Notes under the pieces: generated by a model
Databases searched by the model: none
The model's input: only the letters and a program-made list of their open reading frames with translations
Told to the model about the DNA's origin: nothing
Made by a program: the position numbers and the translations under genes
Part shown: piece after piece, positions 6,223-6,633 of the stretch
How the letters are laid out: the number at the start of each line of letters is the position of its first letter
Numbering within the stretch: the stretch's first letter is position 1
Source: Escherichia phage JP4
Strand: one strand, 5' to 3'
Length of the DNA stretch: 64,000 nt
Sequence record: PQ330092

Positions 6223-6633
6223 ATGATTGAAATGGAAGGAACTCTGGTGTATGATCCAGACCGTGGCACTATGAAAAAGAAGAAGGACTTCTGGTTAGTA
6301 CTACAACTTCCATTACAGTTGGTTCGATACTACCAGTACTTCATCAGAACTGACTTACATATTGATATTAAAGACCCACAATGGGGAGCACATGTCAGTA
6401 TCGTTCGTGGTGAAGTGCCACCAAATCCAGAGTACTGGAAAAAGTACGATGGAATGAAAGTAAAGATAAAGTTCAATCCTTGTATTGAGATAGTAAAAGA
6501 TAAAAAGAATCCAGGTTCATTCTTTATCATTGAATTTGAAGATGATTTCATCACACATATTAGAAATGAACTAGGACTACCAACCAAGTACTTTAAATAT
6601 CACATCACTGTAGGTAGAACCTATTACGATTAA
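6223..6633 (+). CDS. Candidate 2H phosphoesterase-like protein (two H-x-[ST]-x motifs: H57-V-S, H127-I-T)
   Basis: Motif pair AHVSIV and YHITVG spaced ~70 aa apart, as in the LigT/2H superfamily; family assignment is inference. Confidence 0.35.
   Translation: MIEMEGTLVYDPDRGTMKKKKDFWLVLQLPLQLVRYYQYFIRTDLHIDIKDPQWGAHVSIVRGEVPPNPEYWKKYDGMKVKIKFNPCIEIVKDKKNPGSFFIIEFEDDFITHIRNELGLPTKYFKYHITVGRTYYD

Follow-up and report, generated by a model that had tools for sequence, protein, structure and literature searches.

A hypothetical protein of Escherichia coli jumbo phages is predicted to be a stand-alone 2H phosphoesterase with a candidate role in RNA-end healing

An internal duplication is the defining feature of the 2H superfamily (PMC9503650), and for 2H domains of jumbo phages in general a role in RNA-end healing was predicted by Iyer, Burroughs, Aravind and colleagues (PMC7824862, PMC9503650). 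In the anti-CBASS (cyclic-oligonucleotide-based anti-phage signalling system) nuclease Acb1, a C-terminal lid, residues 145-152 in the FBB1 and T4 proteins, closes over cyclic GMP-AMP (cGAMP) (PMC9117128). Here we analyse a gene in a 64,000-nucleotide stretch of Escherichia phage JP4 (record PQ330092), referred to below as the window. A first-pass annotation, made from the sequence alone, had proposed a 2H phosphoesterase, naming Acb1 and RNA 2',3'-cyclic phosphodiesterases as phage examples. With good confidence, the gene is predicted to encode a minimal stand-alone 2H phosphoesterase of the 2H-SAK branch. As for its function, we favour an RNA/tRNA 2',3'-cyclic phosphodiesterase for RNA-end healing, maybe acting also on ADP-ribose 1'',2''-cyclic phosphate (Appr>p), at a probability of roughly 0.55. 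Neither the superfamily nor the Pfam family is new, and a general prediction covering jumbo phages existed already; the present work adds the firm assignment of a gene annotated as hypothetical, its separation from Acb1, a recurrent linkage to YqeY, and a conserved arrangement of RNA ligase, DUF2828 and 2H genes that the E. coli lineage has lost.

The open reading frame (ORF) at 6223..6633 on the plus strand is a real one according to the ORF list of the window and our reading of the DNA, starting with ATG and encoding 136 amino acids. Window positions 5000-8000 are 100% identical to Escherichia phage UB (minus strand) and 95-99% identical to 121Q, PBECO4 and other Asteriusvirus jumbo phages (~350 kb). 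The gene belongs to E. coli jumbo phages of the 121Q/UB group, and its counterpart in 121Q is gp531, annotated as “hypothetical protein”. A tblastn search found the full-length ORF in 76 phage records. Among the records listed, the phages measure about 310-635 kb, with a single 86-kb Klebsiella record as exception, and all label the gene “hypothetical protein” except one, which reads “viral L protein”. The gene falls in PHROG group 12204, of unknown function, and its phAPEC6 orthologue is QDF13919.1. Orthology could not be established with QDH83605.1, the jumbo-phage 2H example of PMC7824862. The antisense ORF at 6330..6587 appears only because ORFs were listed mechanically. Scans for sigma-70 promoters and terminators around the gene gave no excess over shuffled sequence, and an Rfam scan of the surroundings of the gene, both in the window and in Serratia phage BF, detected neither a Y-RNA-like RNA nor any other.

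The two motifs reported by the first-pass annotation, AHVSIV (H57) and YHITVG (H127), about 70 residues apart in a 136-aa protein, proved exact on the DNA. The H57 codon (6391-6393) lies inside GAHVSIVRGE and the H127 codon (6601-6603) inside KYHITVGRTYYD; the spacing is 70 residues and the chain ends at D136, 9 residues past H127. Both motifs carry an arginine five residues after the histidine (HVSIVR and HITVGR). In an alignment of close homologues (n=22, 42-96% identity) both histidines are invariant in 22/22, as are R62, G63, R114, T129, G131 and R132. Across a diverse alignment of 62 family members, with a mean column identity of 28%, the only invariant columns are H57 and H127. T129 and G131 are conserved at 90% or more in the homologue alignments.

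This two-motif pattern exceeds chance. In the near-identical genome of 121Q, 1,909 six-frame ORFs of at least 50 aa were searched for two H-x-[ST]-x motifs with hydrophobic or small flanks, 50-110 residues apart. The pair was present in 7 of them, and the family hidden Markov model (HMM) matches this ORF alone.

The sole Pfam family found at E <=0.01 is PF22547 (2H-SAK), with E 1.6e-5 and 25.6 bits against a curated gathering cut-off of 27. The matched stretch, residues 89-136, includes the second motif. The HMM search called for by the first-pass annotation gave this 2H family, slightly below its cut-off, and no match to Acb1, LigT_PEase or 2_5_RNA_ligase2. PF22547 matches 22 of the 22 close homologues at E <0.01 (best 3.9e-10), orthologues and many distant members carry the precomputed PF22547 label, and the UniRef name of the Yersinia phage orthologue agrees. 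A profile search at E <=1e-3 against a 50%-clustered library of 1.84 billion representative proteins recovered 1,076 family representatives, and the best 150 of these are nearly all stand-alone proteins of about 100-180 aa rather than parts of multi-domain proteins. About half of this wider family has no precomputed PF22547 match. According to Burroughs and Aravind, 2H-SAK domains reportedly occur in an RNA-repair context, and the SAK (“Swiss Army Knife”) name is said to come from their 2016 paper. One member of the present family, in locus L055, has a SAK-type HAD phosphatase (HAD_SAK_2, PF18143) 1.7 kb downstream.

The internal duplication was recovered when the family alignment was split at residue 66 and the halves were aligned by hhalign (probability 79%, E 1.5e-5). 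H57xS falls on H127xT, strand pairs with strand and helix with helix. A confident AlphaFold2 model built from the alignment (pLDDT 90.2, pTM 0.83) has the topology strand-strand-helix-strand(HxS), then strand-strand-strand-helix-strand(HxT). Strand 56-62 follows helix 31-45 and strand 126-132 follows helix 108-116, with one helix per lobe only. As the halves align histidine on histidine and the model is 2H-like, the predicted structure has the symmetric fold expected by the first-pass annotation, with both motifs on equivalent strands. A Foldseek search of the model against the PDB gave weak matches pointing to Usb1 and LigT. Fold similarity to solved 2H structures is present in the model, with comparison values of 7.2 for Acb1 (7t27), 7.0 for mouse hepatitis virus (MHV) ns2, 6.5 for Usb1, 6.3 for the penguinpox cGAMP phosphodiesterase (PDE), 6.1-5.7 for LigT-type proteins, 5.5 for CNPase, 5.3 for AKAP18 and 5.1 for the Arabidopsis Appr>p cyclic phosphodiesterase (CPDase). 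PDB searches with the protein sequence and the family profile returned chance matches only (circovirus capsid, PrgK, L38e). The PF22547 match, the duplication, the invariant histidine pair and the predicted fold together uphold the original proposal of a 2H phosphoesterase.

The comparison with Acb1 (T4 gp57B; PDB 7T27) reveals a shared compact 2H fold with an HxT/HxT-type catalytic tetrad and a similar spacing of the histidines, 70 residues here and 69 in T4 Acb1 (PMC9117128). On the contrary, neither the window protein nor its 22 homologues match the Pfam Acb1 family PF23474, which T4 gp57B matches at 2.7e-60, and the family profile aligns to T4 Acb1 with an hhalign probability of 1.1%. T4 Acb1 runs 39 residues past H113; the window protein ends 9 residues past H127 and so does not have the lid. 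The family is basic (median isoelectric point, pI, of 9.1, with 48/62 above 8) and T4 Acb1 is acidic (pI 5.1). Gene context differs as well. In the viral structure library, Yersinia phage fHe-Yen9-04 has both an orthologue of the present protein and a separate “Anti-CBASS protein Acb1”. No second 2H or Acb1 gene turned up in 121Q, whether sought by motif, with the family HMM or with T4 Acb1 as phmmer query. Membership of the Acb1 family was rejected on the absent PF23474 match and lid, the hhalign result and the basic pI. Of the two examples in the first-pass annotation, it is the RNA 2',3'-cyclic phosphodiesterase branch that gene context favours.

LigT/ThpR (E. coli b0147; PDB 5LDJ, 1VGJ, 4QAK) is also distant. 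No match to LigT_PEase (PF02834) or 2_5_RNA_ligase2 (PF13563) was found even at E <=10, the hhalign probability of the family against ThpR is 1.9%, and the window protein is ~40 residues shorter. The signature that defines LigT/ThpR, H-x-T-x-x-R, reads HITLLR in ThpR and HVSIVR/HITVGR in the window protein. Since both hhalign results are insignificant, sequence gives no preference between T4 Acb1 and ThpR as the nearer relative. The window protein is stand-alone and much smaller than the fungal and plant tRNA ligases with their CPD domain and the Arabidopsis Appr>p CPDase (1FSI), and no sequence relationship to these was detected. Sequence relationship is likewise absent to Usb1 and to the viral 2',5'-PDEs and cGAMP PDEs (MHV ns2 4Z5V, rotavirus VP3 4RPT, penguinpox 9BKQ), which act on immune signals of eukaryotes or on U6 snRNA, irrelevant to an E. 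coli phage.

In terms of function, the strongest contextual argument comes from relatives and not from this genome, because the UB/121Q lineage has no RNA ligase, DUF2828 gene or YqeY at the locus. In Serratia phage BF and in 15/15 other Rak2-like loci outside Asteriusvirus, an RNA ligase lies upstream, with the 2H gene 2.4-3.7 kb downstream of it. The order in phage BF is RNA ligase (gp178), a small ORF, a 508-aa “RNA-binding protein” (gp180), one or two small ORFs and 2H, followed by gp184, lysozyme, HPF, CCA enzyme, Nudix, glutaredoxin, YqeY, gp192 and macro. This core order is common to BF and the 15 other loci, YqeY being detected in 11 of the 15. BF gp178 matches TIGR02306 (DRB0094-type ligase) with 233 bits, and Pfam assigns it PHA02142 OB and RNA_ligase. 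BF gp180 (L052 17987-19513) matches DUF2828 and DUF7788; its orthologues (L005-L019, L054) have 508-530 aa and are always paired with the RNA ligase. This DUF2828/DUF7788 protein may be a TROVE/vWA-like scaffold. Phage BF also has an RlaP nucleotidyltransferase ~14 kb and Thg1 ~19 kb upstream. A relative with 49% identity, on a 106-kb metagenomic contig (L054), has the same order, to which genes for HAD, PRTase and PTH2 are added. The sirtuin-linked BF 2H gene of PMC9503650 was not located, and the annotation shows no sirtuin at a distance of up to 20 kb from BF gp183.

Compared with these loci, the upstream block of ~4 kb (L052 16305-19924; L005-L019) is absent from UB/121Q, and window positions 5865-6222 hold two small ORFs. 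The ligase, the DUF2828 gene, gp184 and YqeY have been lost in the 121Q/UB lineage. One of the small ORFs (5997-6215) has a 39% match to a spot between the ligase and DUF2828 genes of L013 and may be a remnant.

RNA-end repair is likelier than destruction of CBASS signals, because the relatives sit among RNA-ligase, tRNA and ADP-ribose genes. The basic character of the family and the presence of a T4-type Rnl1 and a Pnkp in the phage also support an RNA role. In the proposed mechanism, two beta-hairpin/helix/strand units would face each other, each giving one H-x-S/T motif, with H57 and H127 as the general acid/base pair of a metal-independent attack on the phosphodiester. Host ribonucleases that work without metal, among them anticodon nucleases, HEPN proteins and toxin RNases, leave a 2',3'-cyclic phosphate on the tRNA or other RNA that they cut, and the enzyme would open it. 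After removal of the phosphate, the opened end could be sealed again by ligation or restored by the CCA-adding enzyme. As a possible second activity, the enzyme might hydrolyse Appr>p and so provide substrate for the macro and Nudix enzymes encoded nearby. Catalysis, substrate, product and any partnership with the ligase, CCA enzyme, YqeY or macro proteins are what we infer here.

The features of the window that bear on this proposal are collected in Table 1.

Table 1. Position of the 2H gene, its catalytic motifs and neighbouring genes in the window.
Feature	Position	Strand	Remarks
2H phosphoesterase gene (predicted), stand-alone, 136 aa	6223..6633	+	Orthologue of 121Q gp531 and Serratia phage BF gp183
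First catalytic motif, H57-V-S59-I, then R62-G63-E64	6391..6402	+	DNA reading; strand 56-62 of model
Second catalytic motif, H127-I-T129-V, then G131-R132	6601..6612	+	DNA reading; strand 126-132 of model
LysM + phage-lysozyme protein	6769-7728		319 aa, TTG start; RefSeq start 33 nt later
Ribosome hibernation factor, HPF/RaiA homologue	7745..8077	+	PF02482 at 3.3e-10
CCA-adding tRNA nucleotidyltransferase, possible partner	9678..10790	+	370 aa; Pfam PolyA_pol and PolyA_pol_RNAbd only
Nudix hydrolase	10899..11300	+	PF00293 at 1.1e-12; NudE-like annotation in 121Q
Glutaredoxin	11302-11550		
Macro domain protein (Appr-1''-p / ADP-ribose processing), possible partner	12131..12607	+	Pfam Macro 0.009, weak

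The CCA enzyme matches the model of the E. coli multifunctional Cca at profile positions 1-207 of 409 only. No HD phosphohydrolase domain was detected in it with Pfam, and its C-terminal ~160 residues have no domain assignment. As the phage CCA enzyme shows no HD domain, a 2H protein acting in trans could supply the missing end-cleaning. The macro protein also has a DarG-like NCBIfam match (3.9e-8) and is annotated as macro domain in 121Q. The match to the DarG antitoxin model hints at a DNA/RNA ADP-ribosyl glycohydrolase rather than a simple Appr-1''-p phosphatase. The Nudix gene is syntenic across all Rak2-like loci, and the HPF gene, directly after the lysozyme gene, is kept in the other Rak2-like loci. 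One unrelated viral contig likewise has an HPF gene close to its 2H family member. The LysM-lysozyme gene stands amid RNA and nucleotide genes, at the same place in all Rak2-like loci. No RNA ligase or HAD gene is present near the 2H gene in the window. The genome of 121Q carries its T4-type Rnl1 (gp438) and Pnkp (gp443) ~50 kb away, plus at least 8 tRNAs, and has no annotated KptA/Tpt1 gene.

Outside the E. coli lineage, YqeY is a recurring neighbour. It occurs within 5 kb of the 2H gene in the Rak2-like loci L009-L019, in Agrobacterium phage Atu_ph07 and in loci L029, L030, L042 and L043, the distance being 1.7-5 kb in Atu_ph07, L029, L030/L031, L042 and L043. An apparent fusion (P0035, 335 aa, metagenomic) joins 2H at residues 4-154 to YqeY at residues 219-334. 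The YqeY domain, a relative of the GatB tail, binds tRNA on behalf of Deinococcus GlnRS and can do so either in cis or in trans (PMC1865053). The term YqeY is absent from the comparative-genomics papers PMC7824862 and PMC9503650.

Other neighbours vary among lineages. Macro or PARG genes lie near the 2H gene in Bacillus phage G (gp122), Atu_ph07 (gp670), L030 and further loci, including a set of eight with Macro x2 and PARG to which phage G belongs. CCA/PolyA_pol is present in Vibrio phage 2.275.O and L044, and a His_Phos_1 phosphatase is found directly downstream in L034. Various loci have PTH2, EF-Ts, bL12, aminoacyl-tRNA synthetase and tRNA genes, or NAD enzymes (NAMPT, NMNAT-like, SIR2, PARP). 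A directly downstream gene conserved across lineages was sought and none was found. In two differing contig families, a small DUF3135 protein adjoins or lies near 2H (L032 7468-7779, L033 595-906, L055 8280-8552). A contig of a Cyanobacteriota metagenome-assembled genome (JBFLZA010000003.1, L028 7001-7384) has a family member beside nonribosomal peptide synthetase, methyltransferase, HAD hydrolase and Tex genes, surroundings which suggest that some members are chromosomal and not phage-borne.

These contexts bear differently on the possible substrates. Macro, PARG or Nudix genes recur near the family, in the window and in the loci named above, and, together with the nearby NAD enzymes, would suit a phosphodiesterase for Appr>p or a related ADP-ribose cyclic phosphate in an NAD-linked pathway. 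In such a pathway, which PMC7824862 and PMC9503650 put forward for 2H and macro domains of phages, KptA or a sirtuin would remove the RNA 2'-phosphate to yield Appr>p, 2H would convert this to ADP-ribose 1''-phosphate, the macro protein would remove the phosphate and Nudix would split ADP-ribose. We consider this rather unlikely as the main activity, although it is compatible with RNA-end healing. No KptA/Tpt1 gene is annotated in 121Q, the macro genes are 3-6 kb off and not adjacent, and the basic pI, the linkage or fusion to YqeY and the adjacent RNA ligase fit polymeric RNA better. NAD and ADP-ribose genes are moreover common in jumbo phages (PMC9503650), and therefore their co-occurrence is weak evidence. 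The same neighbours, being RNA, tRNA and ADP-ribose genes and not anti-defence genes, also speak against a nuclease of immune signals that, like Acb1, the viral 2',5'-PDEs or the poxvirus cGAMP PDE, would destroy the cyclic di- and tri-nucleotides, or further oligonucleotide messengers, of CBASS, Pycsar or type III CRISPR. In favour of such a nuclease, the protein is phage-borne and as compact as T4 Acb1, with almost the same histidine spacing; in the viral structure library its best match after a close homologue is an Acb1 (E 8e-3), and in 121Q it would be the only candidate, as no other 2H ORF was found. Nonetheless, the missing Acb1 profile match and lid, the opposite charge and the two separate genes of fHe-Yen9-04, which argue for different jobs, make it improbable.

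A further candidate is other 2H chemistry on RNA, either that of a Usb1-like 3'-5' exoribonuclease, which would trim 3' ends and leave a cyclic phosphate, or that of a LigT-like 2'-5' ligase. This is highly improbable, since other 2H branches reach structural scores at least as high, neither family showed a link at the level of sequence, and a context of ligase and phosphatases fits end healing better. The 2'-5' ligase reaction of LigT is, furthermore, generally held to be the reverse of the physiological one. RNA-end healing itself has several points against it. A T4-type Pnkp is encoded by 121Q, and as the phosphatase domain of Pnkp can itself resolve 2',3'-cyclic ends, the need for an additional 2H enzyme is not obvious. 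The UB/121Q lineage is without the adjacent ligase, DUF2828 gene and YqeY, and much of the context is synteny in one phage family or loose clustering of jumbo-phage auxiliary genes. Several YqeY-linked contigs look related, so the independent linkages are perhaps four. The fusion is seen in one predicted protein, P0035, and may be a read-through or gene-calling artefact, because its YqeY part begins with Met, within sequence that resembles the beginning of stand-alone YqeY genes. The PF22547 score is 1.4 bits below the cut-off and covers residues 89-136 alone. A full-text literature search for PF22547 or 2H-SAK had no match, and no experimental test of the family was found.

A more specific and tentative proposal is that the protein is a dedicated healer of tRNA ends, with YqeY, in one case fused to it, as tRNA adaptor, in an undescribed tRNA maintenance island of jumbo phages. 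The island would comprise a DraRnl-type ligase, a DUF2828/TROVE-like protein, 2H, an HD-less CCA-adding enzyme, YqeY, macro and Nudix. Its 2H member would supply in trans the cyclic-phosphodiesterase activity held by the HD domain of cellular multifunctional CCA enzymes. If it also clears Appr>p, phages would gain in bacteria a yeast/plant-style route of 2'-phosphate RNA repair.

A gene labelled hypothetical is now placed with good confidence in a known superfamily and in a specific branch of it. Its separation from Acb1 is of practical use, since fold searches alone would mislabel the family as anti-CBASS. The recurring link to YqeY gives a concrete, testable lead on what the YqeY family does in bacteria. 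Finally, if the RNA-healing role is true, the gene would mark a conserved block of RNA/tRNA maintenance by which jumbo phages, the Rak2-like ones included, counter the ribonuclease defences of the host, and would offer a compact and easily purified 2H enzyme for studying how jumbo phages sustain translation.
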